Part shown: one piece after another, positions 1 to 25,395 of the stretch
Numbering within the stretch: the first letter of the stretch is position 1
How the letters are laid out: each line of letters begins with the position of its first letter
Assembly (NCBI GenBank): GCA_963805975.1
Contig: CAWDVR010000001.1
Coordinates: forward strand, 832,001-896,000
Source: an uncultured Acidobacteriota bacterium
GTDB lineage: Bacteria; Acidobacteriota; Thermoanaerobaculia; Multivoradales; SZUA-115
Length of the DNA: 64,000 bases
Reading direction: 5' to 3'
Notes under the pieces: model-generated
What the model saw: the letters and a program-made list of their open reading frames with translations, nothing else
Told to the model about the DNA's origin: nothing
Databases searched by the model: none
Position numbers and translations under genes: made by a program

Positions 1-1825
1 CGATCCACCGGATGCGGTGGTTGAGCCGATCGGCGAAGTAGAGGCCGCCGGCCTGGTCGAAGGCGATCGAGGTCGGCCCCTGGAGGCGGGCGTCGCGCGC
101 GGGCCCGCCGTCGCCGCCGAACCCGGCCTCGCCAGTGCCGGCCACGGTCGAGAGGCGGCCCTGCGCATCCACCTTGCGGAGCGAGTGGTCCGCCTCGCAG
201 GAGATGTAGATCTCCCCGGTCCCCGGATGGCGGGCGGCGCGCAACGGCCCGGCCAGGCGCGTCGCGGTCGCCGCCCGGCCCTCCGCGAACACGGTCGCGC
301 CCAGGTCGCCGGCGAAGGTGGCGACCCGCAGGCCGTCGTTGGTCATGCTCACCCGGCGGACCAGGTTCGCCCACTGGTCGGTGATGTAGAAGTTCCAGTC
401 GCCGTCGAGCAGGATGTCGGTGGGCCGGGAGAGCTCGGCGAGATGCGGCGGCCCGCCGTCACCGCCGCTGCCCGGCGTGCCGGTCCCCATCAGGGTTTCC
501 ACCACGCGCTCCGCCATCAGGATGCGGCGCACGGCGTGATTGCCGGCATCGGCCAGGAAGACGTTGCCGAAAGCGTCGACGGCCACCGGTCCGAGCTCGG
601 AGAACTCGGCCTCCTTGAGCGGCACGCGGCTCGGCGCCGCGGCGCCCCCGGCGAAAGTGGTCGCCCGGCCCCCGGCGACCACCAGCACCCGGTGGTTGGC
701 TTCGTCGGCGAGGTAGATCACGTCGCCGCGGCCGATCGCGACGCTGCCCAGCCGAGCCTCCTCGCGACCGGCGGTGAAGATCACGCGGTCCTCGCCTCCC
801 CGATCGACCACGTGCAGCGAGCCGTCGAGGCGGTTGGAGTAGACGATCTCCTGCGTCGAGGTGATCCCCAGGCCGGCGATCGAGCCCCCAGCCGCCGGCC
901 GGCTGGCGGCCACGGTCCCGATCCGGCCGGTCAGCCGGTCGATCTTGCGGATGCGCCCGTTGCCGGAGTCGAGCACGTACACGTTGCCGGTGGCATCGAG
1001 GTCGAGCTCGGTGGGAAAGGAGAGCAGGGCCTCGCGGGCCTGCCCGCCGTCGCCCGCGAGCCCGGCGGCGCCGGTGCCGGCGACGGTGCGGATCTCGCCC
1101 GGCCGCACCTCCACGGCGCAGACCACCACCGGCGAGGTTCCGCGGTTGACCACGCGGACGCGGTGGTTGCCCGAGTCGGCTAGAAAGAGGATGCCGAGGC
1201 CGTCGACGGCGACCCCGGAGGGGTAGTTGAGCTCGGCGTCCACCGCCGCGCCGCCGTCGCCGCTGAAGTGGCCGCGGGCGATCGTCTCGGCGGTGGCCGG
1301 CTCGCTGGGGAGGCTCTCGGGGGCGACCCCGCGCACCCCCAGGCCGGCGACGGTACGCACCCGCTGGCCGTCCGCGGCGACCGCCCGGATGCGATGGTTC
1401 TGGGTGTCGGCGACGAAGATCTCGCCGGTCCGCGGGTCGAGGGCGAGGGCCGACGGCGCGTGGAACGAGGTCTCGAGGCCGGGCCTGCCGTCGCCGTTGA
1501 AGCCGGCGCTCTCGCGTCCGGCCCAGGGCGTCACTGTGGACTCGGTACCGGTACCTTCGGCACCGGTTCCTCCGGGCTCGATGCGGAACACCATCCCGCG
1601 GGAGGTGTCGAGCACGTAGAGGGCGCCGGAGAAGAGGTCGGCGGTCAGCCCGGTGGCACCGTAGAAAGCCAGACCGCCGGCCGCGAGGCTCGCCGGCAGG
1701 GCACGCCCCCCGGCCACGGTGGCGATGATGCCGGGGCGCAGGCTCCGCCACGGCGGGCTGGGCAACGCAGCCAGTTGCAGGAGGCAGAGGAGACAGGCTC
1801 CCAGGAGCAGGCAACGGCCGCGCAC
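1..1825 (-). CDS. Secreted NHL-repeat (teneurin-like) beta-propeller protein, 3' end runs off the window
   Basis: Not in the ORF track. Manual translation from GTG at 1825 (AAAGGAGG upstream) gives signal-like MRGRCLLLGACLLCLLQLAAL, then repeated NHL motifs (FVADTQNHRIR, GDGGAAVDAELNYPSGVAVD, FLADSGNHRVR, GDGGPARDARLQGPTSIAFD). Frame stays open to the window edge. Confidence 0.85.
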   Translation of the reverse strand, partial: MRGRCLLLGACLLCLLQLAALPSPPWRSLRPGIIATVAGGRALPASLAAGGLAFYGATGLTADLFSGALYVLDTSRGMVFRIEPGGTGAEGTGTESTVTPWAGRESAGFNGDGRPGLETSFHAPSALALDPRTGEIFVADTQNHRIRAVAADGQRVRTVAGLGVRGVAPESLPSEPATAETIARGHFSGDGGAAVDAELNYPSGVAVDGLGILFLADSGNHRVRVVNRGTSPVVVCAVEVRPGEIRTVAGTGAAGLAGDGGQAREALLSFPTELDLDATGNVYVLDSGNGRIRKIDRLTGRIGTVAASRPAAGGSIAGLGITSTQEIVYSNRLDGSLHVVDRGGEDRVIFTAGREEARLGSVAIGRGDVIYLADEANHRVLVVAGGRATTFAGGAAAPSRVPLKEAEFSELGPVAVDAFGNVFLADAGNHAVRRILMAERVVETLMGTGTPGSGGDGGPPHLAELSRPTDILLDGDWNFYITDQWANLVRRVSMTNDGLRVATFAGDLGATVFAEGRAATATRLAGPLRAARHPGTGEIYISCEADHSLRKVDAQGRLSTVAGTGEAGFGGDGGPARDARLQGPTSIAFDQAGGLYFADRLNHRIRWI

Positions 1826-2130
1826 CGGGCCTCCTTTCGCCAAGGCAGGTTTCGAGAAGGTAGCAGGGCCCAGGAGACATTCTCCGGGCGCGCCTTGCTC
1901 GAGGTCTTATCCGCCCTTGCGCGGGCTCCCCGGACCGTGCGATGCGGCGGTCGAAGCGGCGGCGCAATCCTGGAGGTGACAGTCATGGCCCTCCTTGCAT
2001 ACCTTGCTCACTCAGGACGAGTGCTCGAAAAACCGCCGGTGGTGCAGTCGAAGCGTCGGAGGCGACGCACTGTTCGCGAGCGTTGCGCGGAGTGGGCTCC
2101 GCGCGGCGCTGCGGAACGAGGAGGCAATCG

Positions 2131-2973
2131 ATGAGAACAGTCGGGTTCGGTAGCGCGCTCAAAGCCGTCCTCGTTCTCGGCCTGCTCCTGGCGCCGATGG
2201 CGATCGGCGACGAGGTGCCGGAGAAGGCTCTCTGGGATCAATGGACCAAGAAGCTGAACACCATCGACCAGCAGCTCAAGGCGGGCCAGTGGGACGCCGC
2301 CGGCCCGCTGGCCCGGGCACTTTCCGATCAGATGGCGAACGGCAGCGGCGGCACCCTCGGCTACAAGCGGATCTACGCCGACCAGCTCGACGGCGCCCGC
2401 ATCGGCCAGGGCTACCTCGCGGAGGCGATGGCGCTCGGGCGCGTGGGCGCCTATCTCGCGCTCTGCAATGCGGCCGAGGGCAAGGAGCAGGAGGCCCGCT
2501 GGTACTGGTACGCGGCGCAGAACCTCGACAACCGCTGGATCGCGACCGACCTGACGGCCTACGGCAAGCCCGGAGCCTTCCTCGCCAAGCACCGCATCAA
2601 GCCACGGGACGAGCAGCACCCCGAGGTGGACGTGCTCGATCCGATCGTGCCCGAGGGCGCCAAGAAGGCCCGCTTCCAGGAGCCGGAGCGCACGCACGTC
2701 GTCTATCCGCTCCGGCCGCACGACCTCGCTGGCCTCGACCGCTTCTCGGAGGCCCTGTTCGTCCAGGTGACGGTGGAGCAGGACGGAACCCTCACCCAGC
2801 CGGTGCTGGTCGACGGCTACGAGTATCCCAGCCTGATGTACAAGGTTTTCGAAGCGATGAGCGGCTGGCGGTATCGCCCGGCCACCTACGACGGCAAGGC
2901 GATCCCCTTCCGCTACGTGGTTCCCGTGGTGTTCAAGGACGACCGCCCCGAACAGTCAGCGGTCTTCTTCTGA
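2131..2973 (+). CDS. Secreted protein with C-terminal TonB-C-like domain
   Basis: ATG at 2131 after GAGGAGG; signal peptide; C-terminus VQVTVEQDGTL...WRYRPATYDGKAIP...VVFK resembles TonB_C. Confidence 0.7.
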   Translation: MRTVGFGSALKAVLVLGLLLAPMAIGDEVPEKALWDQWTKKLNTIDQQLKAGQWDAAGPLARALSDQMANGSGGTLGYKRIYADQLDGARIGQGYLAEAMALGRVGAYLALCNAAEGKEQEARWYWYAAQNLDNRWIATDLTAYGKPGAFLAKHRIKPRDEQHPEVDVLDPIVPEGAKKARFQEPERTHVVYPLRPHDLAGLDRFSEALFVQVTVEQDGTLTQPVLVDGYEYPSLMYKVFEAMSGWRYRPATYDGKAIPFRYVVPVVFKDDRPEQSAVFF

Positions 2974-3000
2974 AAGCTCTGAAAGGAAAAGGAGTCTGCG

Positions 3001-3579
3001 ATGAGAAAGCTCACTCTTCTCTGCCTCGTTGCGGTGGCCGTCGTTAGCCTGGTCACGGCCTCGGCCTACGCGCACAAATGCACCACCTGTCCCTCGTTCA
3101 AGAACACCAAGTCGCTAGCCGGCCAGAACCTGGCCAAGCTCCAGGGCTGCTGGCGGGGCACCAGCCGTGACGGCGTGCGCTCGGAGGTGTCCTTCGAGAT
3201 GGGCAGCGACGGCACGGCGCTGCTCGAGACGCAGTGGGTGGACGACTACCCGCCGGTCTACACCATGTACTACATGGACGGCAGCGGCATCTCGGCCCAT
3301 CACTTCTGCTCGATGGGCAACCAGGTCCGGATGAAGGGCAGCGCGGCCGCCGACGGCGGCATGCTGAGCTTCCGCTACCTGGACTCGACGAACATGCCGA
3401 GCGCCAACCAGCCGCACATGACGGGCGTGGTCATGAAGTTCGGGGACAGCAGCCACATCACGATGGAATGGGCCTCGTTCTGCGACGGCGGCGACGGCGA
3501 CGAGATCAACTCGTTCAGCTACGAGCGCGTCACCACCGGCTGCACGGTCGGTTCCGCCAAGAGCTGGTCTCAGAAGTAA
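3001..3579 (+). CDS. Secreted Cys/His-motif hypothetical protein, paralogue 1
   Basis: SD AAGGAG; signal peptide ending AYA; motifs CTTCPSF, LQGCWRG, AHHFCSMGNQVR, PHMTG. Confidence 0.8.
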   Translation: MRKLTLLCLVAVAVVSLVTASAYAHKCTTCPSFKNTKSLAGQNLAKLQGCWRGTSRDGVRSEVSFEMGSDGTALLETQWVDDYPPVYTMYYMDGSGISAHHFCSMGNQVRMKGSAAADGGMLSFRYLDSTNMPSANQPHMTGVVMKFGDSSHITMEWASFCDGGDGDEINSFSYERVTTGCTVGSAKSWSQK

Positions 3580-3710
3580 GCTCCGAGAGAGCCCGGCACG
3601 CGGCGGAGCGCGCCGGGCCTCGAAACCTGCCGCCGGGGCGAAGCCGGCACGGCGAGCCCCGGACCCAGCCGGTGCCGGTCGAGAGCTCTGAAGACGAAAA
3701 GGAGCCTGGG

Positions 3711-4295
3711 ATGAAGAAGCTCACTGTTCTCTGCCTCGTTGCGGTGGCCGTCGTCGGCCTGGTGACGGCCTCGGCTCACGCGCACAAATGCACCACCTGC
3801 CCCTCCTTCAAGAGCACCAAGTCGCTCGCCGCCCAGAACCTGGCGTCGCTTCAGGGCTGCTGGCGCGGCGCCAGCCGCGAGGGCGTGCGCTCGGAGGTCT
3901 CCTACGAGATGGGCAGTGACGGCACGGTGCTGCTCGAGACGCAGTGGGTGGACGGCTACCCACCGGTCCACACCGTCTACTACATGGATGGCACGGACCT
4001 CGCGGCCCACCACTTCTGCTCGATAGGCAACCAGGTGCGCCTGCGGGCGAAGTCCTCTCGCGAAGGCCGTCGGATCGATTTCCAGTTCCAGGATTCGACC
4101 AACGTGCAACGGCCTCGCCGCAAGCAGCCGCACATGACCGGCACCACGGTACAGTTCCAGGGCAAGGACCACATCACGGTCGACTGGGCTCTGTCCTGCG
4201 GCGACGGCACCGGCCTGATCACGAATACCTTCACCTACCAGCGGGTGGTCGAGGGCTGCAAGGTCGACACCCTCAAGCGCTGGTCGGAGAGGTAG
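3711..4295 (+). CDS. Secreted Cys/His-motif hypothetical protein, paralogue 2 (tandem duplicate)
   Basis: ATG at 3711 after AAGGAG; N-terminal half near-identical to 3001-3579 in both DNA and protein. Confidence 0.8.
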   Translation: MKKLTVLCLVAVAVVGLVTASAHAHKCTTCPSFKSTKSLAAQNLASLQGCWRGASREGVRSEVSYEMGSDGTVLLETQWVDGYPPVHTVYYMDGTDLAAHHFCSIGNQVRLRAKSSREGRRIDFQFQDSTNVQRPRRKQPHMTGTTVQFQGKDHITVDWALSCGDGTGLITNTFTYQRVVEGCKVDTLKRWSER

Positions 4296-4377
4296 GCCTG
4301 GAACTCGGCGCGCTCGCCGCCGCGCCTGACCGCCGGCGCGATGCGAGCAGAACGGCTGGCCCATCCTGGGCTGATCC

Positions 4378-6828
4378 ATGAAGGGGCTCGCCAAGGATCT
4401 CGCGCTCGCGCTCCGCGCGCTCCGCCGCCGGCCCGGTCTCACGCTCGCGGCGGTCCTCTCCCTGGCCTTGGGGCTCGGCTCGAGCATCGCGATCTTCCGC
4501 TTGGTGAGCGCCGCCTTCTTCCGGCCGCTCGGGGTGGGGGAGCCGGCCTCGGTGGTCGCGGTCTACGTCGCCCGCCAGCAGCGGCCGGACGACTACCTTT
4601 CGATCTCCTATCCCAACTTCCTGGATCTGGCCGAGGGCCAGCGCACGCTCTCGTCCTTCGCCGCCTACCAGTGGCTGCGGGTCACCCTGCTCGAAGGCGA
4701 GAGCACTAAGCGGAGCTACATCCAGATCGTGCGGCGTGAGTTCTTCGACGCCCTCGGCGTCCGGCCCGCCCTGGGCCGGCTGTGGGAGCCGGCCCAGGAT
4801 GCGCCGGCGGGCGGTTCGCCGATCGCCGTGCTGTCGCACGACTTCTGGCGGCGCGAGCTGGGCAGCGACCCGGCCGTGCTCGGCAAGACCGTCCGCGTCG
4901 CCGAGCGGGCACTGACCGTGGTGGCGGTGATGCCCCCGGGGTTCAAGGGCACCCGCACCTTCACCGGCGCCGAGCTCTGGGTGCCGATGGGCTACTACGC
5001 CGAGGTGTCGCCCTACGCCGCGGACTTCCACGAGCGCGGGGCGCAGATGTTCGAGATGGTCGGCCGCCTGCGCCCCGGCGTCTCCCTGCACGAGGCGGAG
5101 CTCGACCTCCAGGCCGGAGCCGCGCGGCTGGCCGGCCAGTACCCGGAGGTCAATCGGGAGCAGGGCATCCGGATCTTCCCGCTCTCCGAGACCGCCATCG
5201 AACCCTGGCAACGCCCGCTCTACGTGCGTGGCGCGATCATGATCGCGGGCGTGATGGGCCTCCTGCTGCTCATCGCCTGCGGCAACGTCGCGAGCCTGCT
5301 GCTGGCCCGCGGCCTCGAGCAGCGCCGCGAGGTCGCCATCCGCCTCTCGCTCGGCGCCGGCCGCGGCCCGCTGCTACGACAGCTCCTGGCGCAGAGCCTG
5401 CTGCTGTCCCTGGCCGGCGGCGCGCTCGGCCTGCTCCTGGGCCTGCGCGCCCCGGCACTCCTCTGGCGCTTCCGGCCGCCCGACTTCTTCACGGCGGACG
5501 CGTTGGACCTCAGCCTGGATGCCGAGGTTCTCTGGGTGACCCTGGCGCTGTCGCTCCTCACCGGCCTGGTGTTCGGCCTCGTGCCGGCGCTGCAGTCGAC
5601 CCGGCCACAGCTCGTGCAGGCGCTCAAGGAAGAGTCCGTGGCCGGCGCGGGGCGGCGCCGGATCGCGCTGCGCGATCTGCTGGTGGCCACCCAGGTGGCG
5701 CTCAGCTTCCTGGCGCTGGCCGGCGCCGGGCTGTTCGCCAAGAGCCTGGCGCGTGCGCACACGGTCGACCCCGGCTTCGAGGCGGACCGCATCCTGGTGC
5801 TCACCTACGGGCTCGCCGGCCAAGCCGGGAGCGCCGCCGAGCACGAGGGCCTGAACCAGCGGGTCCTCGACGGGTTGGCGAGCCTGCCCGGCGTCGAGCG
5901 CGCGGCTCTCTCCTCGTACCAACCGCTGACCGCGGGGCCTCCCGTCTACTGGCGCGTGGAGGCCGAGGGCGAGGCGCCCGCCGGGCAGCCCTCGCGCCGC
6001 ATGGTCATGACCACCGCGGTGACTCCCGGCTACTTCGCGACGCTCGGCATCCGCCTGCTCGCCGGCCGCGACCTCGGCGTGGCGGACCGACCCGGCACGC
6101 CGCTGGTCGCGGTGGTCAACGAGGTGCTGGCCCAGCGGCTGTGGCCGGAGGGCGACGCGGTGGGACGCCGGCTGCGGGTCGCCGAGAACGGCAGCGTGCT
6201 CGAGATCGTGGGGGTGGTGGCGGCCTCCAAGCACCACAGCGTCACCGAGGCGCCGCGCTCCGGCCTCTACCTGCCGCAGCAGCAGTGGCCGCGCCCGGAC
6301 GTGACCGTGCACCTGCGGACGGCGGGCGACCCGGCAGCGCTGATCCAGCCCGCGCGCCGGCGGCTGCAGGATCTCGCTCCGACCTTGACGCCCTACGCCG
6401 TGCAGCCGATGCGGTCCACGGTCAACGCCTCCCTGTGGGCGCAGCGCCTGGGGGCCGCCGTGCTCGGTCTCCTGGCGCTCCTGGCCCTGGTCCTGGCGGT
6501 GACGGGCGTCTACGCCGTGCTGTCCTACTCGGTCCGGCAGCGGTTCCGCGAGATGGCGATCCGCCTCGCCCTCGGCGCGCCGCCGGAGGCGGTGCTGAGG
6601 CTGGTGCTCCGGCGGGCGATGGTCGCCGTGGGAGTCGGGGTCCTCTGTGGCCTGGTCGTCGCCGTGGCCGCCGGGCGCTTCGTGGCGAGCCTGCTGTTCG
6701 GCATCCAGGCCAGCGATCCGCTGACTCTCGCCGAGATCGGCGTCCTGCTCGCCGCCGTGGCCCTCGCCGCCGGCTATGGCGCGGCGCGGCGGGCGACGCG
6801 CGTGGATCCGCGGGAGGCGCTGCGATGA
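4378..6828 (+). CDS. ABC transporter permease, MacB/FtsX duplicated (ADOP family)
   Basis: 816 aa; LSLALGLG N-terminus, LLLLIACGNVASLLLAR, RREVAIRLSLGA, REMAIRLALGA, C-terminal RVDPREALR. Confidence 0.92.
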   Translation: MKGLAKDLALALRALRRRPGLTLAAVLSLALGLGSSIAIFRLVSAAFFRPLGVGEPASVVAVYVARQQRPDDYLSISYPNFLDLAEGQRTLSSFAAYQWLRVTLLEGESTKRSYIQIVRREFFDALGVRPALGRLWEPAQDAPAGGSPIAVLSHDFWRRELGSDPAVLGKTVRVAERALTVVAVMPPGFKGTRTFTGAELWVPMGYYAEVSPYAADFHERGAQMFEMVGRLRPGVSLHEAELDLQAGAARLAGQYPEVNREQGIRIFPLSETAIEPWQRPLYVRGAIMIAGVMGLLLLIACGNVASLLLARGLEQRREVAIRLSLGAGRGPLLRQLLAQSLLLSLAGGALGLLLGLRAPALLWRFRPPDFFTADALDLSLDAEVLWVTLALSLLTGLVFGLVPALQSTRPQLVQALKEESVAGAGRRRIALRDLLVATQVALSFLALAGAGLFAKSLARAHTVDPGFEADRILVLTYGLAGQAGSAAEHEGLNQRVLDGLASLPGVERAALSSYQPLTAGPPVYWRVEAEGEAPAGQPSRRMVMTTAVTPGYFATLGIRLLAGRDLGVADRPGTPLVAVVNEVLAQRLWPEGDAVGRRLRVAENGSVLEIVGVVAASKHHSVTEAPRSGLYLPQQQWPRPDVTVHLRTAGDPAALIQPARRRLQDLAPTLTPYAVQPMRSTVNASLWAQRLGAAVLGLLALLALVLAVTGVYAVLSYSVRQRFREMAIRLALGAPPEAVLRLVLRRAMVAVGVGVLCGLVVAVAAGRFVASLLFGIQASDPLTLAEIGVLLAAVALAAGYGAARRATRVDPREALR

Positions 6829-8288
6829 CCGCGCGCCGGCGAATCGCACTTCTTTTCGCTCTTCTGGCCTGCCTCGCCGCGACGGGAGGCTGCCTCCACC
6901 AGCGGCCGTCGGCCCGCCCGGCGCCGGACCCCTCGGCCGCAGGCGGCGGCGAGGACTGGCCCCGCTTCCTGGGCCGCCGGGGGGACGGCAAGTCACTCGA
7001 GCGCGGCCTGCTCGCCGAGTGGCCGGCCGCAGGCCCTCCCGTGCTGTGGTCCAAGCCGGTCGGCCGCGGCTACAGCCAGGTGGCGGTGGCGCAGGGGCGC
7101 CTCTTCGTCTTCGAGCGGCGCGGGGACCAGGCGCGCCTGAGCTGCTGGCAGAGCGAGACCGGCGCCGAGCTGTGGCGCGCCGAGTACGCCACCGACTACA
7201 AGGGGCTGATCGAGGAGAAGGGCGGCCCGATGGCCAACCCGCTGGTGGACGGCGACCGCGTCTACACCTTCGGCGCCGAGGGCCGGCTGCGCTGCCACCG
7301 CGTGGAGGATGGGAACCTGCTCTGGGAGGTCGACACCGCCTCCCGCTTCGGCGTCGTCCAGAACCTCTACGGCGCCGGCTCGACGCCCTGGGTGGAAGGG
7401 GAGCTGCTGATCGCCATCATCGGTGGCAGCCCCCCCGGCAGCCCCGGCATCCACTCGGACAGGGTCGAGGGCAACGGCAGCGGCATCGTCGCCTTCGACA
7501 AGCGGACCGGCGAGGTGCGCTACCAGGTCTCGAACGAGCTGGCGAGCTACGCCAGCCCGCTGGTCGCCCCGGTCGGCGGCCGTCGTCTGGGCTTCGCCTT
7601 CACCCGCGGCGGGCTGCTGCTCTTCGAGCCACGGCTGGGAAAGGTACAGAGCTTTTTCCCCTGGCGCGACGTCGCCGGCAAGGGCGTCAACGCCGCGACG
7701 CCCGTGGTGGTGGACGACACGGTCTTCATCACCGAGGCCTACGGGCCCGGCGGCGCGCTGCTGCGCGTCGCGCCGGGCGGGTTGGAGCTGCTGTGGAAAG
7801 ATCCGCCGGGGCGCGGGCGCAGCCTGGCCGCGCACTGGTCCACGCCGCTCCATCACCGCGGGTATCTCTACGGGGTGAGCGGCCGCACCGCCGCCGAGGC
7901 CGAGCTCCGCGCGGTGGAGCTCCGCACGGGTCGGGTGGCGTGGCGGGAGAAGATCCGGAGCCTCGCGACGCTGCTCTACTTCGACGAGAAGCTCCTGGTG
8001 GTCACTGAGTACGGCCGCCTGATGCTCGTCGCGGCCCACCCCCGGCGCTTCGAGCTGCTGGCCGAGGCCGATCTGGGGGAGGAGAAGAAAGAGGCCGGCG
8101 CCGCCGAGGGCGAGCCGCCGGTGGCGCGGGCGCTGCTCAAGTACCCGGTGTGGAACGCGCCGGTGCTGGCGCACGGCCTGCTCTACGTGCGGGGGTGGGG
8201 GAGGCTGGTCTGTTTCGATCTGCGCGCCGGCGATCCTAGTGCCAGACGTCCGAATGGCGAACGTCACAGCCCTCGACCACCCGAGTGA
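6825..8288 (+). CDS. PQQ-binding-like beta-propeller lipoprotein
   Basis: ATGA overlap with the permease stop; lipobox-like signal (LAATGGC); DWPRFLG, GYSQVAV, ASYASP, NAATPVV, WNAPVLAHGLLYVRG. Confidence 0.85.
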   Translation: MTARRRIALLFALLACLAATGGCLHQRPSARPAPDPSAAGGGEDWPRFLGRRGDGKSLERGLLAEWPAAGPPVLWSKPVGRGYSQVAVAQGRLFVFERRGDQARLSCWQSETGAELWRAEYATDYKGLIEEKGGPMANPLVDGDRVYTFGAEGRLRCHRVEDGNLLWEVDTASRFGVVQNLYGAGSTPWVEGELLIAIIGGSPPGSPGIHSDRVEGNGSGIVAFDKRTGEVRYQVSNELASYASPLVAPVGGRRLGFAFTRGGLLLFEPRLGKVQSFFPWRDVAGKGVNAATPVVVDDTVFITEAYGPGGALLRVAPGGLELLWKDPPGRGRSLAAHWSTPLHHRGYLYGVSGRTAAEAELRAVELRTGRVAWREKIRSLATLLYFDEKLLVVTEYGRLMLVAAHPRRFELLAEADLGEEKKEAGAAEGEPPVARALLKYPVWNAPVLAHGLLYVRGWGRLVCFDLRAGDPSARRPNGERHSPRPPE

Positions 8289-8805
8289 AAGGAAAGAGCT
8301 GGCGCAGCTCTTTGTGGTTCTGGTGCAGGCCCCAGTCGATGTCCAGGTGGTCCGGGTCCCGGAAGGTGAAGTTGATGTAGGTCATGTGGTCGTCGTCTTC
8401 GCGGCTCTTGATGTTGGTGGCGTCGACGAAGGCGAAATGCAGAACCTTGGGGTCGGTCTGCGGCTGGGCCCGGAAACGGATCTGGCTGCCGTAGGAGCAG
8501 AAGTGGTGGATCATCGGCGTCTCGCCGTCGATATAGATGGCGGAGTACATGGGCACCTGGCCCTGCTGCTCCAGGTACTCGATGATCACCGTGCCGTCGC
8601 TCGACAGGTCGTAGGATACCCGCGAAGGCGCCCCCCAGGGGTTCTTACCCACCCAGCAGCCGTTGAGCGACGCGAGCAGCTTGATCGCCGGGGTGTTGGT
8701 GATCTTGAAGGAGGGGTTGCCGGGAAACTCCTGCGCCCGCGCCGCGGTGGAGGAGAGAGCGAGGGCGGCGGCGAAACCGAGCGCCGCGCAGGCGGTTTTT
8801 CTCAT
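8236..8805 (-). CDS. Secreted Cys/His-motif hypothetical protein, paralogue 3
   Basis: Signal ending ARA; PSFK, LNGCWVG, IHHFCSYGSQIR, DHMTY, RVVEGC align with paralogues 1 and 2. Confidence 0.8.
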   Translation of the reverse strand: MRKTACAALGFAAALALSSTAARAQEFPGNPSFKITNTPAIKLLASLNGCWVGKNPWGAPSRVSYDLSSDGTVIIEYLEQQGQVPMYSAIYIDGETPMIHHFCSYGSQIRFRAQPQTDPKVLHFAFVDATNIKSREDDDHMTYINFTFRDPDHLDIDWGLHQNHKELRQLFPFTRVVEGCDVRHSDVWH

Positions 8806-8912
8806 GCGTCACCTCTGGCCCCAACTATGCGGACCGGGGGCCTCCGAGTCTTATCCGAGGTTGCGGAGCTCCTGCCGCGAGGCCGACGGCAGGCCATCGC
8901 GCAAGCAGGGAG

Positions 8913-11900
8913 ATGACCCCGCACCGGCGAGGCTCCATACTGCGGCGAGCGGCACGCGTGAAGAGTCTGATGCGACGGCACCGAGAGCGGCAGTCCCCGG
9001 CCCTCCTTCTGGGCGCCATGGTTTCCCTGGTGGCCCTCCTCGGCGCGGGCGCGAGCGGCCGGGGCCCTGCCCCGGTGGGCCTGCCGCCGGTTCCCATCCC
9101 GGCCGAGAATCCCCTGACGCCGGCCAAGGTGGCGCTCGGCGAGCGGCTGTTCTTCGAGACCGGCTTTTCGATCGACCGGCGGGTCAGTTGTGCCGGCTGC
9201 CACCGGCCCGAGGGCTTCTTCGTCGACGAGGAACGGTTCTCCAAAGGCATTCTCGGGCTGGACGGGGCGCGCAACACGGGCTCGGTGCTCAACGCAGCGT
9301 ACTCGCCCTTCCTGATGTCGGACGGCCGCGCCACCAGCCTGGAGGACCAGGTCAAGTACCCGGTCACCAACCCGCTCGAGCTCAACACCACGCAGGAGAG
9401 GGTGGTGAGCTTCCTCGCCGGCGAGCCCGCCTATGCTCCGCTCTTTGCCGCGGCCTTCGGCGACGCGAGCGTCACCTGGAAGCGGGTCACCGAGGCGATT
9501 GCTTCCTTCGAGCGCACGCTGATCGCCGGCAACTCCGCCTTCGACCGCTTCATGGCCGGCGACGGAGCGGCGCTGTCGGCGCCGGCGCAGCGTGGCTGGG
9601 AGCTGTTCCGCGGCGAGGCGGGCTGTGTGCGCTGCCACGCCTACCGCCCCGATCAGCCCTTCTTCAGCGACTTCGAGTTCCACAACACCGGCGTCGCCTG
9701 GTACCCGGACGACCCCCAGCCGTCCGTCCGCCACACCCCCGACCTCGGCCGCTACTGGGTGACGCGGGACCGGCAGCACATCGGGGCGTTCCGCACTCCG
9801 GGCCTGCGCAACGTGGCGCGGACGGCGCCCTACATGCGCAACGGCGAGCTGGCGACGCTGGCGCAGGTGGTGGAGTTCTATTCCAAGGGGCCGCGCAAGA
9901 ACCCGTTCCTCGACGCCCGGCTAGAGCCGCTCGCGCTCACCGCCGGGCAGCAGGCGGACCTCGTCGCCTTTCTCGAGTCGCTGACCGGCGAGGTCGGCTA
10001 CCAGCGGCCGGCGTCGCCGGGCGAAGGGGCGCCGCCATCGCCGGCGGCGCCCGCCACGCCGGTCTCGGCCGCTTCGGCCTCGGACACGCCAACCTCGGCC
10101 GCGCCGGCCAAGCCGAGCCCCGGCTACGGCCGGATCGAGGTGGTCGCCGGCGGCGGGGACGACGGTGACGGCGGCAAGGCGATGGACGCCGTGTTCGTCA
10201 ACGTCGGCGGTCTGGCGGCGGACCCCAAGGGCAACCTCTACGTCGTCGACTCGGGCGCCAACCGGGTGCGCAGGATCGATGCCGAGACCGGCCTGATCCG
10301 CACTGTCGCCGGGACCGGCCTGATGGTCGGCGCGCTCGATTCCCAGATCGCCATCGACCGGCCCTTGCGCGGGCCGGTGCCGCTGGCGATCGACGGCCCC
10401 GGGCGCTCGCTCTTCGTGGGCGAGATCCTCTCGCGGCGCGTGCTGCGGGTGGACCTCGCGAGCGGTGCGATCGAGGATCTCGGGGGACCCGCGGGCGGCT
10501 TCGGCAGCCCGGACGGCCTGCTCTGGACCCCGGCGGGCCTGCTGGTCGCCGACGCCCCCCGGGGCCAGGTGTGGCGGCAAGGGGTGGGCGGCGCCTGGAC
10601 CGGTCTGCTCTCCGCCGGCAGCGAGCTGGGCGACAACATCCGCACCCTGGCGCAGGACTCGAGGGGCCGGGTCTACGTCAGCGAGTACTTTGCCCACCGG
10701 GTGCTGCGCTGGGACCCCGCCACGGGTGATCTGGAGGTCGTGGTGGGAACGGGCCAGTCGGGGCGCGGCGCCGACGGCCTGCCGGCGCCGCAGGCTGCGA
10801 TCCGCACCCCGGATGGCATCGCTCTCGACCGCAACGGCCACCTCCTCGTCGCCGACAAGGGCAACCACCGGATCTGTCGCGTCGACCTCGCGACCGGTGT
10901 GCTCGAGACCGTGGCCGAGTCCCGCGAGAAGAAGGGGAGCGAGAAGCGGTGGACCCCCGGTCCCATCGCCGCCGACGCCCAGGGGAACCTCTGGATCGGA
11001 GACCTGGAGAGCAACCGCCTGCTGCGCCTGGCGCCCGGCGCCTCCGAGCCGGTGGTGATGGCCGGCGCCGGCGGCATCGGCGACGGCGGTGCCGCCACCG
11101 CGGCGCGGCTGGCCCATCCGGGCAGTGTGGTGGCCGACGCCCGCGGCGATCTCTACGTCTCGGACACGCTCCACCATCGGGTGCGGGTGATCGAGGCGGC
11201 GACGGGCCGCATCCGCACCCTGGCCGGTACCGGCATGCACGGCTACAACGGCGACGGCATCCCGGCGACCCAGGCCTGGCTGAGCTACCCCGCCGAGCTG
11301 CAGATCGACGGCAAGGGGCGCATCTACTTCGGGGACTACTACAACAACCGGGTGCGCGTGGTCGATCCCGCCACCGGCCTGATCTCGACCCTCGCCGGCA
11401 GCGGCAAGGCCGGGGAGGATGGGGACGGCGGGCCGGCGACCGGCGCCAAGCTGTTCAACCCCCACGCCCTGCTGCTCGAAGGGGACCGCTCGCTGCTGAT
11501 CGCGAGCGCCGTCTCCTCCCGGGTGCGCCGAGTCGACCTCGAGAGCGGGACGATCTCCAGCGTGGCGATGGGGGACGGGGTGCCGGCGGACCTCGCCTTC
11601 TACGGGATGGCGCACTGGGCCGGCGGCGTGGTCATGGCGCGACCCCGCCCCGGCAGCATCGAAGTGCTCCGCGACGGCAAGCTCACGCCGCTCCTCGACC
11701 GTCCGGACGTCTTCTTCCCGCAGGACGTCACCGTCTCGCCCCGCGGTGAGCTCTTCGTCTGCGAGACCGGCCGCAACCGCGTCATGCGCTGGACCGGCAA
11801 GAACCTCGAGCCGGTGGTCGAGAACCTCGGCAGGCCGGGCTCGATCAGCTTCGATTCCCAGGGCAATTTGTTGATCTCGGACACCTTCCACAACCGTGTG

Positions 11901-11957
11901 CTGAAGGTCTGGCTGGCGCCCGAGGCCACGGCACCGCGGTCACCCGTTTCGCCCTAG
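8913..11957 (+). CDS. Diheme cytochrome c peroxidase/MauG-family domain fused to NHL-repeat propellers (true start may be 8958-9018)
   Basis: NPLTPAKVALGERLFF, CAGCH, CVRCH, FRTPGLRNVARTAPYM, DLVAFLESLT; Pro/Ala linker; about 600 aa of NHL repeats. Confidence 0.9.
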   Translation: MTPHRRGSILRRAARVKSLMRRHRERQSPALLLGAMVSLVALLGAGASGRGPAPVGLPPVPIPAENPLTPAKVALGERLFFETGFSIDRRVSCAGCHRPEGFFVDEERFSKGILGLDGARNTGSVLNAAYSPFLMSDGRATSLEDQVKYPVTNPLELNTTQERVVSFLAGEPAYAPLFAAAFGDASVTWKRVTEAIASFERTLIAGNSAFDRFMAGDGAALSAPAQRGWELFRGEAGCVRCHAYRPDQPFFSDFEFHNTGVAWYPDDPQPSVRHTPDLGRYWVTRDRQHIGAFRTPGLRNVARTAPYMRNGELATLAQVVEFYSKGPRKNPFLDARLEPLALTAGQQADLVAFLESLTGEVGYQRPASPGEGAPPSPAAPATPVSAASASDTPTSAAPAKPSPGYGRIEVVAGGGDDGDGGKAMDAVFVNVGGLAADPKGNLYVVDSGANRVRRIDAETGLIRTVAGTGLMVGALDSQIAIDRPLRGPVPLAIDGPGRSLFVGEILSRRVLRVDLASGAIEDLGGPAGGFGSPDGLLWTPAGLLVADAPRGQVWRQGVGGAWTGLLSAGSELGDNIRTLAQDSRGRVYVSEYFAHRVLRWDPATGDLEVVVGTGQSGRGADGLPAPQAAIRTPDGIALDRNGHLLVADKGNHRICRVDLATGVLETVAESREKKGSEKRWTPGPIAADAQGNLWIGDLESNRLLRLAPGASEPVVMAGAGGIGDGGAATAARLAHPGSVVADARGDLYVSDTLHHRVRVIEAATGRIRTLAGTGMHGYNGDGIPATQAWLSYPAELQIDGKGRIYFGDYYNNRVRVVDPATGLISTLAGSGKAGEDGDGGPATGAKLFNPHALLLEGDRSLLIASAVSSRVRRVDLESGTISSVAMGDGVPADLAFYGMAHWAGGVVMARPRPGSIEVLRDGKLTPLLDRPDVFFPQDVTVSPRGELFVCETGRNRVMRWTGKNLEPVVENLGRPGSISFDSQGNLLISDTFHNRVLKVWLAPEATAPRSPVSP

Positions 11958-13178
11958 GCCGGGCTCGACGGCTTCCACCCGCTCCTCGGGCGCGGGGCCG
12001 AAATAGCGCTTGAGGCGGAGGAACCGCACCTCGAAGGCGTGGTAGAGGATCGCCGCCAGGAGCCAGGAGCCGGCGATCCCCACGCCCAGCCAGAAGAGCC
12101 GCTCCAGGATGGTGAACCGAACCAGGCTCAGCACCTGGCGGTAGACCAGGGGGTAGACCACGACGAAGGCCAGCAGGTGGAAGAGGTAGATGCCGTAGGA
12201 GTACTTGCCCAGTGAGGCCATGGGCCGGGCCTCGAAGAGCTTGGCGAGCACCGGGCCCTGGTCGAGCACCTTCGCCAGCAGCCCGGCCCAGCCCAGGGCC
12301 AGGAGGGAGTACCCCACCACTTGGAAGGAGGGGGTCTCCCGCACCTGATCGCCGGCCAGGAGCAGCCAGGCGCCCGCTGCCGGCAGGCAGACGAAGAGAG
12401 CGGCGCCGGACAGCCGGCGCCAGAGGTCGGGCCGGAACCGAGGCGAGCGCAGGTAGGCCGCCATCAGCCCCCCTGCCGCCAGGGTGTCCAGCCGGCAGGG
12501 GGTGAGGAGGAAGATCGACAGCCAGTGCCCGCCGCTGAACGCCAGGGCCGCCCGCAAGCCGACGGCACCGAGGAACACCGCCGCGATCACGCCCAGGAGC
12601 TTCTTGGGCGGGCAGAGCAGGATCAGGAAGGGCCAGACCAGGTAGAACTGCTCTTCGATCGCCAGGCTCCAGGTCAGGCTGTTGGCATAGCCCGGCGAGA
12701 AGTCCTCGCGGTCCGCCATCCACAGGTTCGAGGTGTAGGTCACGTACCAGGGCCAGGCAGCGGCGTCGGCGGCGTACTGATAGCCGGGCACGCGCTCGAG
12801 ATGCATGCGTTGAGCGTAGATGGGCATCAGCAGCAGTGTGGTCGCCAGGAAGAGGTAGTAGAGCGGAAAGATCCGCAGCACCCGCCGGGCGAAGAAGTTG
12901 CGGATGGAACCCGGGCGGCGGCGGGAGTCGATCAGGATGCCGGTGATCAGGAAGCCGCTCAGGACGAAGAAGAGGTCCACCCCCGCCCAGCCGAGCCGCG
13001 ACAGGCGGCTCAGCGCCTGGCCCAGCAGAGTGCCGTGCTCCGGGCGCCACAGATGGAGCACCAGCACCAGCAGAATGGCAAGGCCGCGCAGGCCGTCCAG
13101 GCCGCGGACCCGCCCGCGAAAGCGGGGGATAGTTGAGCGCAGCGATTCGCCGGCCGCCGGCTTCGAGGTCGGCTCCAT
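11940..13178 (-). CDS. Acyltransferase 3 (OafA-like) membrane O-acyltransferase
   Basis: LDGLRGLAILLV, GVDLFFVLSGFLIT, RRVLRIFPLYY, WSLAIEEQFYLVWP, SYGIYLFH. Confidence 0.92.
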   Translation of the reverse strand: MEPTSKPAAGESLRSTIPRFRGRVRGLDGLRGLAILLVLVLHLWRPEHGTLLGQALSRLSRLGWAGVDLFFVLSGFLITGILIDSRRRPGSIRNFFARRVLRIFPLYYLFLATTLLLMPIYAQRMHLERVPGYQYAADAAAWPWYVTYTSNLWMADREDFSPGYANSLTWSLAIEEQFYLVWPFLILLCPPKKLLGVIAAVFLGAVGLRAALAFSGGHWLSIFLLTPCRLDTLAAGGLMAAYLRSPRFRPDLWRRLSGAALFVCLPAAGAWLLLAGDQVRETPSFQVVGYSLLALGWAGLLAKVLDQGPVLAKLFEARPMASLGKYSYGIYLFHLLAFVVVYPLVYRQVLSLVRFTILERLFWLGVGIAGSWLLAAILYHAFEVRFLRLKRYFGPAPEERVEAVEPGLGRNG

Positions 13179-13194
13179 CGCCCGCGGCCCGCGC

Positions 13195-13545
13195 TCAGCG
13201 GCGCTCGATGACGTCCGCCACCAGGCCGAACGGGTCGACGAAGTAGAGCGCCTTCTCCGCCGCGGACTCGCGGAGAATGCGGCACCCGGCGGCAACCAGG
13301 TGCGCCTTGGCGCGCTCGAAGTCGGCCACCGCGTAGGAGGGGACGTAGGACATCACCCGCTCGTCGAGGTTGACCCAGAGCGTGAATGCCCCGGTCTCGA
13401 AAGCCAGCTTGTCCGGCTCGTCGAGAATCAGCCGAAACCCGAGGACGCCACCATAGAAAGCTTTGGCTCGCCCGAGATCGGGCAGGTGGATCGCGACCTC
13501 GGGTTGAGACCGGAAGGCCGGGGTGGCAAGCGCCGCGTCGCTCAT
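13195..13545 (-). CDS. VOC/glyoxalase/bleomycin-resistance family protein
   Basis: DLGRAKAFYGGVLGF and YFVDPFG motifs; 116 aa. Confidence 0.85.
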   Translation of the reverse strand: MSDAALATPAFRSQPEVAIHLPDLGRAKAFYGGVLGFRLILDEPDKLAFETGAFTLWVNLDERVMSYVPSYAVADFERAKAHLVAAGCRILRESAAEKALYFVDPFGLVADVIERR

Positions 13546-23069: not shown

Positions 23070-24382
23070 AGGGCGGCGCCTTCCTCGCCGTCGGCCTGCC
23101 GGGCAAGGTGCTGGAACCGGAGAACGCTCGGCTCCTCACCCGGCTCGAGCCCGGCGGCGTCATCCTGCTGCCGCGCAACATCGAGGACGCCGGCCAGCTC
23201 GGGGAGCTCACGGCGTCGGTCCGCCGTGTGGTACCCGAAACGCTCCTCTACCTCGACGCCGAGGGGGGGAGGGTGGACCGCCTGCGCAACGTCCTGGGCC
23301 CGGCGCCCGGCGGCGACGTGCTGGCGAGGAACCCTCCTCGCCTGGCGGCGCGCGCCGGCCGTTGGGTGGGCGCCGGCCTGCGGTGCTTCGGCTTCGACGT
23401 GGATCTCGCCCCGGTGGTGGATCTCGATCACGGCCTGGAGAGCAATGCCCTGGACCGGCGATACCTGGGAAGGGCGCCGCGCGGCGTGACCGCGCGGGCG
23501 CGGTCTTTCCTCGCCGGCCTGCACGCCGCGGGAGTGAGCGGCTGCCTCAAGCACTTTCCCGGCCTGGGCCGGGCCGGCGAGGACACCCACGACCAAGGGA
23601 CGGTGATCGCGGCGAGCGAAGCGGCCCTGGCGCTGGACCTCGAGCCCTTCCGCCGGCTGGCGGGGGAGGCGGGAGCGGTGATGGTCAACCACGCCGCCTA
23701 CCCTGCGATCGACCCCTCCGGCCTGCCGGCCAGCCTGTCGCGGGAGATCGTCTGGCACCTTCTGCGGCGCCGCACCGGCTTCCGCGGCCTCGCGCTCTCG
23801 GACGACCTCGACATGCACGCCCTCGACCCCTGGGGGAACGCCGCCGAGCGCGCCGAGGCCAGCTTCGCGGCCGGCTGCGACGTGGTCTTCCTCTGCCAGT
23901 CCCCGGACGCCGCGCTGGAGGCGGCCCGCCGGCTCGGCCGTCCCGGGCTCGAGGCGCGCCGCGAGGAGGCGACGCGCCGGCTCGCGGCCTACCGGCGGCG
24001 GCTTGCGAGGTTGCGAAAGGCGGCCAGGCGGCGACGACCCGGAAGAAGTCATCCGCCGCCTGGCTTCCTTGCAGTAGCTCAGTGCCCCGAAGTCCTGGAC
24101 CCACTCGGTTCCGGCCCGTTGAAGTCCACCCAGGCGGTACCCACGTCGTACCCCCAGTCGAGCACCCCGGAGGTGTACGAAGGCCCGAAATCCGTACCCG
24201 CCGAGACCATGCACTCGAGGCGGCTCGACACGAAGTTCTCGTCCCCCACCCGCCGGCAGAAGTCCGCCCGGTGGTCGCCGTCGAAGTCCGTCCAGGCAAA
24301 CCCTTCAGGCCGCCCCCACTCGCGCACCTCACCCCTGGCGTTGGTCGTGCCCTCAGCGAAACCTCCGCCGGTTGACAAGTAG
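23066..24382 (+). CDS. nagZ: Beta-N-acetylhexosaminidase (GH3) with anomalous C-terminal extension
   Basis: GTGA overlap with mutS; DAEGGRVDRL, DLAPVVD, KHFPGLG..DTH, LSDDLDM; last ~100 codons overlap the opposite-strand gene. Confidence 0.88.
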   Translation: MKGGAFLAVGLPGKVLEPENARLLTRLEPGGVILLPRNIEDAGQLGELTASVRRVVPETLLYLDAEGGRVDRLRNVLGPAPGGDVLARNPPRLAARAGRWVGAGLRCFGFDVDLAPVVDLDHGLESNALDRRYLGRAPRGVTARARSFLAGLHAAGVSGCLKHFPGLGRAGEDTHDQGTVIAASEAALALDLEPFRRLAGEAGAVMVNHAAYPAIDPSGLPASLSREIVWHLLRRRTGFRGLALSDDLDMHALDPWGNAAERAEASFAAGCDVVFLCQSPDAALEAARRLGRPGLEARREEATRRLAAYRRRLARLRKAARRRRPGRSHPPPGFLAVAQCPEVLDPLGSGPLKSTQAVPTSYPQSSTPEVYEGPKSVPAETMHSRRLDTKFSSPTRRQKSARWSPSKSVQANPSGRPHSRTSPLALVVPSAKPPPVDK

Positions 24383-25395
24383 CAGACGACGAGCCGTACT
24401 CCTTGCCCAATCGGCGTGCAGTAGTCCGCCCGGCCATCGGCGTTCTGATCGGCCCATGCGCCCGGAAAGTACGTGGGATTGGGTTCGATCACCCCGGAGG
24501 TGAAGGTGAGTCCGAAACCCGTGCCGGTCGAGAGGGTGCACGTTGCCCACGTCAATTGATCGCTCGAGACACTGTCCCGCCGGCAGTAGTCCGCTCGGCC
24601 GTCGGCATTGAAGTCCACCCAGCCGAAACCGATGTCGTATCCCCAGTCGATCACGTCGGAGTAGTAGCTGGGTCCGAAGCCCGTGCCCGTCGAGACCGTG
24701 CACGCGACGTAGCTCGACACATAGTTCTCATCCCCCACGCGCCGGCAGTAGTCGGCTCGGCCGTCGGCATTGAAGTCCGCCCAGCCGACACCCACGTCGT
24801 ATCCCCACTCGATCACGTCGGAGTAGTAGGTAGGTCCGAAGCCCGTGCCCGTCGAGACCGTGCACGCGACATAGCTCGACACGAAGTTCTCGTCCCCCAC
24901 TCGGCGGCAGTAGTCCGCCCGCCCATCGACATTGAAGTCCACCCAGGCGACGCCCACGTCCAGTCCCCAGTCGATCACGTCGGAATAGTAGGTGGGCCCG
25001 AAGCCCGTGCCCTTCGAGACCGTGCATGCGACATAGCTCGACACGAAGTTCTCGTCCCCCACGCGCCGGCAGTAGTCCGCCCGGCGGTCGCCGTCGAAGT
25101 CCACCCAGGCGACGCCCACGTCTTGTCCCCAGTCGATCACGTCGGAGTAGTAGGTCAGTCCGAAGCCCGTGCCCTTCGAGACCGTGCACGCGATATGGCT
25201 CGACACGAAGTTCTCGTCCCCCACCCGCCGGCAGTAGTCCGCCCTGCTGACGAGGCCCGGCTGTGCATTGGCTGCTTGCGGCGGTGCAATACCGAAGGCG
25301 AGCAGCGCTCCGAAAGCCGCGGCAGCGGCGCGAAGGATGCGTTGGCGCAGGCTGCTCCCCAGCTCGTGCGCCCCATCATGGCTCTTGATCAACAT
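24079..25395 (-). CDS. Secreted FG-GAP/VCBS-like 7-repeat beta-propeller protein
   Basis: AAAGGAG SD before ATG 25395; signal peptide; seven ~54-aa repeats RADYC...C...WxDFxxDG. Confidence 0.85.
   Translation of the reverse strand: MLIKSHDGAHELGSSLRQRILRAAAAAFGALLAFGIAPPQAANAQPGLVSRADYCRRVGDENFVSSHIACTVSKGTGFGLTYYSDVIDWGQDVGVAWVDFDGDRRADYCRRVGDENFVSSYVACTVSKGTGFGPTYYSDVIDWGLDVGVAWVDFNVDGRADYCRRVGDENFVSSYVACTVSTGTGFGPTYYSDVIEWGYDVGVGWADFNADGRADYCRRVGDENYVSSYVACTVSTGTGFGPSYYSDVIDWGYDIGFGWVDFNADGRADYCRRDSVSSDQLTWATCTLSTGTGFGLTFTSGVIEPNPTYFPGAWADQNADGRADYCTPIGQGVRLVVCYLSTGGGFAEGTTNARGEVREWGRPEGFAWTDFDGDHRADFCRRVGDENFVSSRLECMVSAGTDFGPSYTSGVLDWGYDVGTAWVDFNGPEPSGSRTSGH
24115..25245 (-). repeat. Intragenic tandem repeat, unit about 162 bp, 7 copies (first four near-identical)
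   Basis: Recurring TCGACACGAAGTTCTCGTCCCCCAC and CCCCAGTCGATCACGTCGGA at 162-bp spacing. Confidence 0.9.

Follow-up and report, generated by a model that had tools for sequence, protein, structure and literature searches.

A linear heptaene is the product of the enediyne polyketide synthase (PKSE) acting with its thioesterase, and the early steps that follow are described as mostly unknown (PMC8725005). The DynF protein is an eight-stranded barrel with bound palmitate for which that source reports no structural neighbour reaching Z 10, and sungeidine biosynthesis cannot proceed without its orthologue Sgd15 (PMC8725005). Enediyne compounds are stated to be known only from Actinobacteria and ascidian extracts, though PKSE genes occur in many phyla (PMC10308959). 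We describe here a gene cluster of about 27 kb in an uncultured member of the Acidobacteriota; its right half lies in the window, that is, the whole stretch of 64,000 nucleotides that was analysed (positions 832001-896000 of contig C1 of the source genome, G000). With a probability of about 0.62, we read this locus as an arm of a PKSE pathway that would tailor the product in the periplasm, export it and protect the producer; the synthase cassette of that pathway lies elsewhere in the same genome.

The conserved cluster and co-occurring PKSE cassettes

The order DUF6004-NHL-M16-M16-diheme-NHL is repeated in all of the DUF6004 loci whose contigs are long enough, with cluster proteins that are 30-74% identical between loci and a G+C content of 53-72%. 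Besides that of G000 we found seven DUF6004 loci, titled Acidobacteriota of several classes, in six GTDB genomes, G430-G435 (L-numbers denote metagenome or genome loci, P-numbers homologous proteins and C-numbers contigs). DUF6004, NHL and the M16 pair are the constant partners of the diheme genes. LolA-like, NHLb, TonB-C, HHFC, AraC, VOC, AT3 and PQQ-like propeller genes recur as accessories, and in G432, G433 and L033-type loci an ABC ATPase/permease pair stands in for MMPL. The cluster is rare: a single-protein query detected DUF6004 in none of 400 other genomes spread evenly over the phylum (401 with G000). The cultured Bradyrhizobium sp. SZCCHNRI1029 has both DUF6004 (WP_316193042) and a diheme-NHL protein (WP_316193038), with near-consecutive accessions.

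In each of the seven genomes with DUF6004 we found a PKSE together with DUF1702 (in G430 split over two contigs); these PKSEs are 44-68% identical to the query PKSE that we used. In the background sample DUF1702 was found in 11 of the 400 genomes, four of them at E below 1e-87. The G000 cassette, UnbL-UnbV-UnbU-PKSE-thioesterase, lies at C3:326310-336438; its E3, E4, E5, E and E10 genes are all five present in order, with an apparent frameshift in UnbV/E4, and its PKSE (C3:330137-335980, 1947 aa) is 49.8% identical to SgcE, the C-1027 polyketide synthase, over residues 27-1949. An AhpD-like gene beside this cassette is 33% identical to the one in C-1027. Cassette and cluster are unlinked in G000 and G431 and contiguous in G432 and G434. 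In G434, UnbL-UnbV-UnbU-PKSE-AraC-thioesterase is followed, at most 3 kb on, by LolA-MMPL-NHL-diheme-M16-M16-NHL-DUF6004. The PKSE of G432 (C9:131078-136891) lies between two copies of DUF6004 (C9:124438-125820 and C9:150420-151802), which have equal scores and the same upstream leader and flank the cassette. A partial cassette of UnbL, UnbU, UnbV and flavin reductase genes is found 4-8 kb from DUF6004 in L033. The public soil run X1 holds copies of both halves that are about 95-97% identical, at a depth of 9-13, and the similar depth of the two halves fits one organism without proving it. PKSE genes accompany the cluster in seven cases out of seven and also occur without it, so the cluster has the look of an arm that is optional, mobile and dependent on PKSE. 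That it is linked to a PKSE pathway is, in our judgement, quite probable.

The G000 system shares with the actinomycete enediyne clusters (C-1027 sgc, dynemicin dyn and tiancimycin tnm) the gene order UnbL-UnbV-UnbU-PKSE-thioesterase, a PKSE about 50% identical to SgcE, an SgcR2-like AraC regulator, a DynF-like barrel, an AhpD-like gene and MMPL. It differs from them in its diderm host, in the export of its accessory proteins, in a DynF-like protein that is doubled and secreted, and in having its two halves on separate contigs. The dihemes, NHL propellers, M16 pair, LolA-like protein and TonB-C protein had no match in our actinomycete reference set, three 46-kb Streptomyces stretches compared by BLAST.

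The likeness to DynF concerns the fold. Our model of DUF6004 (pLDDT 88.7, from an alignment of 101 rows) has DynF (6UBL) as its top Foldseek match (E 2.9e-6), and comparison by VIA gave Z 16.8 over 159 residues with a root-mean-square deviation of 3.5, the next match having Z 12.3. This match to the eight-stranded barrel covers residues 245-422. The N- and C-terminal halves of DUF6004 are homologous (hhalign 96%), so the protein is likely to consist of two DynF-like barrels in tandem, the N-terminal one having many invariant polar residues. It differs from DynF and Sgd15 in its two predicted barrels per chain, in its signal-like N-terminus and in an identity of 18-20% in the structural alignment. 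A PDB sequence search with the DUF6004 profile gave nothing useful, and tblastn found no DUF6004 match in a plasmid collection that included the C-1027 plasmid.

The regulator provides a further connection. The window AraC is a full-length match, 38% identical over about 235 aa, to an AraC of the C-1027 cluster (E 5e-42). The gene for the latter is 25 bp from a StrR-like gene; sgcR2 is stated to adjoin a StrR-like gene at that spacing in the C-1027 cluster (PMC2657911), and it is on this ground that we name it sgcR2. The window protein is the sole full-length SgcR2-type AraC in G000, and at E<=1e-30 the type was found in just five of the 401 genomes (G000, G023, G072, G322 and G352), which are the five strongest DUF1702 genomes. 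In a tree whose outgroup branches are long, it falls together with the AraC proteins from PKSE cassettes and from the other clusters and is separate from the remaining AraC proteins. An AraC protein is described as a positive regulator of core genes in tiancimycin biosynthesis (PMC9464397). A promoter motif, GCAA-N4-GGAKAAG, has three exact sites in the 27-kb locus, compared with 0.02 expected, and two in the window, compared with 0.01 expected; all three are intergenic, one of them before DUF6004, and the enrichment is seen only with the 4-base spacer. A matrix built from 29 sites of other genomes, which were chosen by the same pattern and so are not fully independent, ranks the three locus sites first (26.3, 26.3 and 22.6; next 17.5). 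Motif sites also lie near the PKSE cassettes of G432, G433, G434, G072 and Streptomyces clavuligerus pSCL4 (28.1), with a weak one in C-1027 (15.8). The SgcR2-like AraC is likely to bind these sites.

Related arrangements were seen in other places. In G072 (L095:1689-6306) the genes that follow a PKSE cassette encode a thioesterase, an AraC of the SgcR2-like type, a pair of small barrel-like proteins and a P450, and each gene is preceded by motif-like sites; one of the small proteins weakly matches the C-terminal half of DUF6004 (E 0.039). This stretch is a cytoplasmic counterpart of the exported arm. PDB sequence searches with two small PKSE-neighbour proteins gave nothing useful. UnbL, UnbV and UnbU genes occur in G023 (L089-L090), which is one of the five genomes with an SgcR2-type AraC, and in G215 (L097); the stretches fetched contained no canonical PKSE, and the G215 genes are beside a different polyketide synthase, one that resembles those making polyunsaturated fatty acids. 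G000 itself has four genes for tandem paralogous secreted proteins at C1:664404-667716, and the motif is matched exactly at 667878. The same region (C1:664404-696273) holds, more to the right, genes for a 200-aa protein weakly like the C-terminal half of DUF6004 (hhalign 22%) and for a third CCP_MauG protein, together with UnbV-like and UnbU-like genes and no PKSE; the region is possibly a cousin system that lacks the polyketide synthase.

Diheme enzymes and HHFC barrel proteins

Both diheme proteins of the cluster, diheme 1 upstream and diheme 2 in the window, have two CxxCH motifs. The distal Gln, Pro and Glu never vary across 23 aligned fused homologues, 22 of which retain the axial Tyr. 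Roles for the Gln, Pro and His residues of diheme enzymes are recognised. Judged by their sequences, both proteins are of the His/Tyr type found in MauG, MbnH and BthA and not of the Met-ligated peroxidase type; they share with those enzymes the two CxxCH motifs, the axial Tyr of the second heme and the distal Glu. They differ in being fused to, or followed by, NHL propellers. The cluster dihemes also fall below the cut-offs of the MauG and MbnH families, diheme 2 scoring 219 bits against TIGR03791 (MauG, cut-off 443.85) and 228 bits against TIGR04039 (MbnH, cut-off 362.85), and Pfam and NCBIfam scans of the neighbouring genes gave no amine-dehydrogenase subunit or MbnP family match. A third CCP_MauG gene, at C1:683307, was considered as part of the cluster and set aside as distant (32%).

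The two cluster enzymes are not alike at the interheme Trp site, which is Trp in diheme 1 and Ser in diheme 2; the Trp is absent from five of the 23 fused homologues. Diheme 2 also has Arg in place of a conserved His, a further difference from MauG, MbnH and BthA. P0298 has the same Ser and Arg and L026 has the Ser, and the Ser-type dihemes (diheme 2, P0298, L026 and a partial G430 gene) form a supported clade (96/100). BthA is reported to form bis-Fe(IV) even with Ser257 at the interheme site, and MauG to need Trp (W93) for the synthesis of tryptophan tryptophylquinone (TTQ) (PMC6405878). Diheme 2 resembles BthA in this Ser, but taken as a whole the two are little alike (E 2e-16), so the shared residue is likely to be convergent. 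Close diheme homologues P0299-P0308 and P0326 are fused to a carbon-nitrogen hydrolase domain (PF00795) in place of NHL. P0337 is an M16-diheme fusion whose contig equals in size that of the DUF6004 protein P0036.

The three HHFC proteins of the window, H1 to H3, are true paralogues, as the preliminary description had proposed: H1 and H2 are 65% identical, H1 and H3 34%, and all three contain HHFCS. None has a Pfam or NCBIfam match. The H3 model (pLDDT 94.4) is a 10-stranded antiparallel barrel for which the OlmO/OssO spirocyclases and the nitrobindins are tied as matches, at Z about 15. The HHFC proteins share the calycin barrel with these proteins and differ from them in sequence (8-15% identity), in export and in having a His-x-Cys motif and a likely disulfide. 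A PDB sequence search with the HHFC profile gave nothing useful, and for H3 the ESM Atlas offered hypothetical clusters only and, as a weak lead, DUF1579 (15% of members).

For the HHFC subfamily 29 matches were found. The family around it is broad (3114 cluster representatives) and has no tie to this gene cluster; the His-x-Cys motif and two invariant Trp residues are widespread there too (22 of 40 relatives). We compared 28 subfamily rows with 113 generic rows, leaving out six intermediate ones. His77, Cys79, Trp27 and Trp134 of H3 are common to both sets; Cys26, Cys156 and the C-terminal Trp164 are specific to the subfamily, Trp164 being present in 26 of the 28 rows and in none of the 113. 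Cys26 and Cys156 are likely to form a subfamily-specific disulfide in the predicted H3 structure, and the specificity of Trp164 leaves room for modification of an HHFC protein. G000 has a generic THYC member of this family, which lacks a Pfam model, at C2:769922-770482, with no cluster around it.

Among 15 metagenome loci fetched with HHFC, 13 carry other cluster genes and two hold distant members without them. The expectation that HHFC genes would be found with MauG-like genes elsewhere was borne out in L035, L036, G432 and G433, where they accompany this diheme family, and in L026, which repeats the divergent layout of H3 and diheme 2; the window and L026 are also where HHFC has expanded to three genes. 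No HHFC-family gene was found in the draft genome G431, though it bears the diheme gene, and the draft genome G434 has a single generic family member on another contig. For this reason we regard the HHFC proteins as accessories. Being optional, and nitrobindin- and OlmO-like, they are unlikely to be obligate substrates of the dihemes, for which the preliminary description had suggested them as possible substrates or partners, and the constant partners of the dihemes are other proteins.

The proposed arm and its rivals

The periplasmic arm is suggested by gene content, conservation, co-occurrence, fold matches and the promoter motif, and we infer all of its chemistry. In 2024 Gui et al. reportedly found that the E3, E4 and E5 proteins convert the heptaene to iodinated polyyne intermediates. 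MMPL and the LolA-like protein, or the ABC pair in other genomes, would move a hydrophobic intermediate to the periplasm. There the secreted tandem barrels of DUF6004 might hold it, as the lipid-filled barrel of DynF suggests, and the two His/Tyr dihemes would oxidise it in its bound state by way of a high-valent oxidant formed with hydrogen peroxide, a task that in actinomycete clusters falls to cytoplasmic P450 and flavin oxidases. The NHL propellers and the M16 pair may scaffold or process the carrier, the optional HHFC barrels could serve as cyclase, carrier or thiol trap, and AT3 would acylate the product. VOC, a candidate self-protection protein, or START/SRPBCC proteins in other genomes, could protect the producer; the G432 cluster has four START/SRPBCC didomain genes. 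The SgcR2-like AraC would switch the arm on through its GCAA-N4-GGAKAAG sites.

Parts of this scheme are less secure than the whole. Action of the dihemes on a small molecule is possible at somewhat short of even odds, and we are equally hesitant to call the pathway product a true enediyne. A bolder proposal, which we put forward as speculative and rather unlikely, is that a new structural class of enediyne or polyyne is made in the periplasm of Acidobacteriota and of at least one cultured Bradyrhizobium, where a secreted tandem DynF barrel would present a PKSE-derived intermediate to MauG-type dihemes, with the HHFC calycins as cyclases or chromoprotein-like carriers.

Several observations weigh against the periplasmic arm. 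The G000 cassette and the window locus are on different contigs, and the UnbV gene of this cassette has an apparent frameshift near C3:328865; the same region is in frame in G001 and in contigs of runs X1 and X3, which a third run, X2, does not show, and the frameshift may be a sequencing error or a real lesion. The motif was first noticed on visual inspection of a promoter set that included G000, and over the whole G000 genome its five exact sites are near the chance expectation of 3.8. There is no motif site within 2.6 kb upstream of the G000 cassette, and none scoring 12 or more in the cassette stretches of G001, G430, G431 and G435. Four genomes (G001, of the same genus and with a PKSE 81% identical, G322, G072 and G352) have a PKSE and no DUF6004 by the Pfam model, a weak probe, and the three of them that were tested have no orthologue-level diheme-NHL gene. 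The DUF6004-linked PKSEs are not one clade in a tree that is mostly unresolved, and the seven DUF6004 genomes, all of one phylum, are not independent. START and VOC folds are those of known enediyne resistance proteins (TnmS and CalC/CalU16 types); the PDB sequence matches were FosA only for VOC and AHSA1-like only for START, with no enediyne resistance protein among them. HMMER found no match between DUF6004 and DynF 6UBL at E<=10, and a shared fold shows no function. An attempt to load DynF with the heptaene is reported to have failed, and a ligand test to have given palmitate only (PMC8725005).

If the dihemes acted as MauG and MbnH do, they would modify a protein, DUF6004 or a propeller, to give a new quinone- or kynurenine-type enzyme of the PKSE pathway, with M16 trimming it. 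The retention of the distal Glu, Gln and Pro and of the axial Tyr (22-23 of 23 homologues) is consistent with this, as are W239 and H245 of DUF6004 in 101 of 101 rows (Y241 in 100, W85 in 82), the placing of DUF6004 always directly before an NHL gene and an intact HxxEH in all six M16 proteins checked. The small and propeller subunits of amine dehydrogenases form a layout that the DUF6004-NHL pairing resembles. Against it, both dihemes, where tested, fall far short of the MauG cut-off (219 versus 444 bits for the window copy), the predicted fold of DUF6004 is a DynF-like ligand-binding barrel, and the five homologues without the interheme Trp lack the residue that MauG needs for TTQ synthesis, so we think protein modification unlikely. 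Somewhat less likely still is a sensing and detoxification module in which AraC would detect PKSE-type polyenes or enediynes and the exported barrels and peroxidases would bind and destroy them, shielding the cell with no part in synthesis. The many ligand-binding folds (DUF6004, HHFC, VOC and START) would suit such a module, as would an unlinked, motif-free and perhaps broken G000 cassette and close relatives that have a PKSE without the cluster. However, a pure defence would be expected in genomes without PKSE too, and none of the seven is of that kind; moreover, the AT3, carbamoyltransferase, GDSL and MBOAT genes that lie within or next to the clusters have a biosynthetic character by their look.

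We give a slightly smaller chance to a third use of the PKSE product, as a polyene or polyyne building block cross-linked or attached to the cell envelope to form a pigment, radical shield or surface modification. MMPL with LolA-like, TonB-C, AT3 and MBOAT are envelope-type functions, and BLAST with the reference set found no homologues of DUF5987, GMC oxidoreductase or TIGR03084, which are core genes in actinomycetes, among the cluster and cassette neighbours; yet the DynF-like barrel, SgcR2-like regulator and AhpD-like gene are held in common with true enediyne clusters, and START and VOC proteins recur in the loci. The preliminary description suggested that the HHFC barrels may be substrates of the diheme-NHL enzyme, which would make a stand-alone cofactor or metal-handling system. 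H3 is divergent from a Ser-type diheme gene in the window and in L026, an H3-type protein (P0023) and the Ser-type diheme P0298 are on contigs of equal size, and the clade of Ser-type dihemes and the subfamily-specific W164 argue in the same direction. In most loci, though, a single HHFC gene is divergent from DUF6004 and not from the diheme gene, the His-x-Cys motif and the two invariant Trp residues are common to a large family that extends well beyond this cluster, and the distribution in G431 and G434 is as given above; such a system would also leave the PKSE, the DynF-like fold and the regulator unexplained. We consider it very improbable. The periplasmic arm of a PKSE pathway accommodates these last features, and it is the reading that we retain.

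Locus features and their meaning

The genes and domains listed in the preliminary description are all present at about the positions it gave, and its limits of 1 to 13545 are wrong: the unit continues for about 13 kb to the left of the window (C1:819111-832000) and takes in the AraC gene on the right, beyond which ferritin and housekeeping genes mark the end of the cluster (Table 1). The cluster has five propellers. All of the window proteins listed except VOC and AraC have hydrophobic N-termini, and it is from this simple hydropathy, not signal-peptide prediction, that export was deduced. A look-up of RNA data sets holding the window listed none.

Table 1. Features of the cluster (window positions unless a contig is named)
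Feature	Position	Strand	Remarks
Secreted DUF6004 protein	C1:819111-820379		left of window
NHL-M16 peptidase fusion, second M16, diheme 1 (CCP_MauG), NHL, MMPL, LolA-like	C1:819111-831628 (span with DUF6004)		left of window
NHLb, exported NHL beta-propeller, 725 aa	C1:831648-833825 (1..1825 plus 352 bases leftward)	-
Promoter motif GCAA-N4-GGAKAAG	1906..1920	-	between divergent NHLb and TonB-C
TonB C-terminal domain protein (PF03544)	2131..2973	+	exported
HHFC barrel H1	3001..3579	+	extra N-terminal CxxC
HHFC barrel H2	3711..4295	+
ADOP duplicated permease	4378..6828	+	TIGR03434 799 bits, cut-off 622
PQQ_2/BamB-like propeller	6825..8288	+	ATGA overlap with ADOP stop
HHFC barrel H3	8236..8805	-
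Promoter motif	8850..8864	-	between H3 and diheme 2; weaker opposite copy near 8901
Diheme 2, CCP_MauG fused to NHL propellers	8913..11957	+	two CxxCH
AT3 membrane acyltransferase (Acyl_transf_3)	11940..13178	-
VOC/glyoxalase-fold protein	13195..13545	-
AraC regulator, N-terminal helix-turn-helix	13589..14404	-	outside limits of preliminary description

NHLb has orthologues 41-53% identical in G430-G435 and in metagenome loci. NHLb and TonB-C, separate and divergent in the window, form a single open reading frame in L035-L038 (about 13272-15490 in L035/L036). The overlap at the ADOP stop agrees with the coupling of the permease and the PQQ-like propeller suggested earlier. ADOP has 52 tblastn segments in the genome, and the copies near other loci are just 28-34% identical; with so many paralogues and such low identity it was rejected as a core part of the cluster and is best regarded as an accessory. 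A PQQ_2-type propeller adjoins H3 in L026 and L027 also (53-66% identical), and a 29% copy is found in the G434 cluster. The gap between H3 and diheme 2, previously put at about 110 bp, is 107 bp when counted to the first diheme ATG; this ATG lies inside the weaker motif copy, so the true start may be at 8970 or 9018. AT3 has orthologues in the clusters of G431 (54%) and G434 (47%). Beside the AT3 orthologue there are carbamoyltransferase and GDSL genes in L057 (G434) and an MBOAT gene in L054 (G431), which are likely to be lineage-specific decoration. VOC orthologues are 45-58% identical in G430, G431 and L035. Outside the cluster, the window holds at 24079-25224 (-) a gene whose product has VCBS-like segments in repeats, and after it comes a small secreted gene pair.

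The exported oxidative system proposed in the preliminary description is real and conserved, and we found no earlier description of it. In a literature search that had most subscription journals outside its scope, neither this gene set nor DUF6004 was found described. Nothing was found on enediynes with cytochrome c peroxidase gene clusters; searches on enediynes with MauG gave nothing on topic by title, those on enediyne polyketide synthases in Acidobacteria nothing on this cluster by title or abstract start, and those on enediynes and Bradyrhizobium nothing on topic among the matches listed.

Our findings name a set of accessory genes that is conserved alongside PKSE in diderm bacteria, and give DUF6004 a predicted fold and a proposed pathway. 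They propose a site for SgcR2-type regulators that is also present in a Streptomyces enediyne cluster, and they suggest a small-molecule role for MauG-type dihemes. As the cultured Bradyrhizobium sp. SZCCHNRI1029 holds both DUF6004 and the diheme-NHL protein, the idea can be tested. If it is true, these would be the first bis-Fe(IV) diheme enzymes to act on a natural-product scaffold, and a soluble, exported enzyme set would become available for the question of enediyne ring closure. Soil bacteria would then have a new route to molecules related to potent anticancer drugs.

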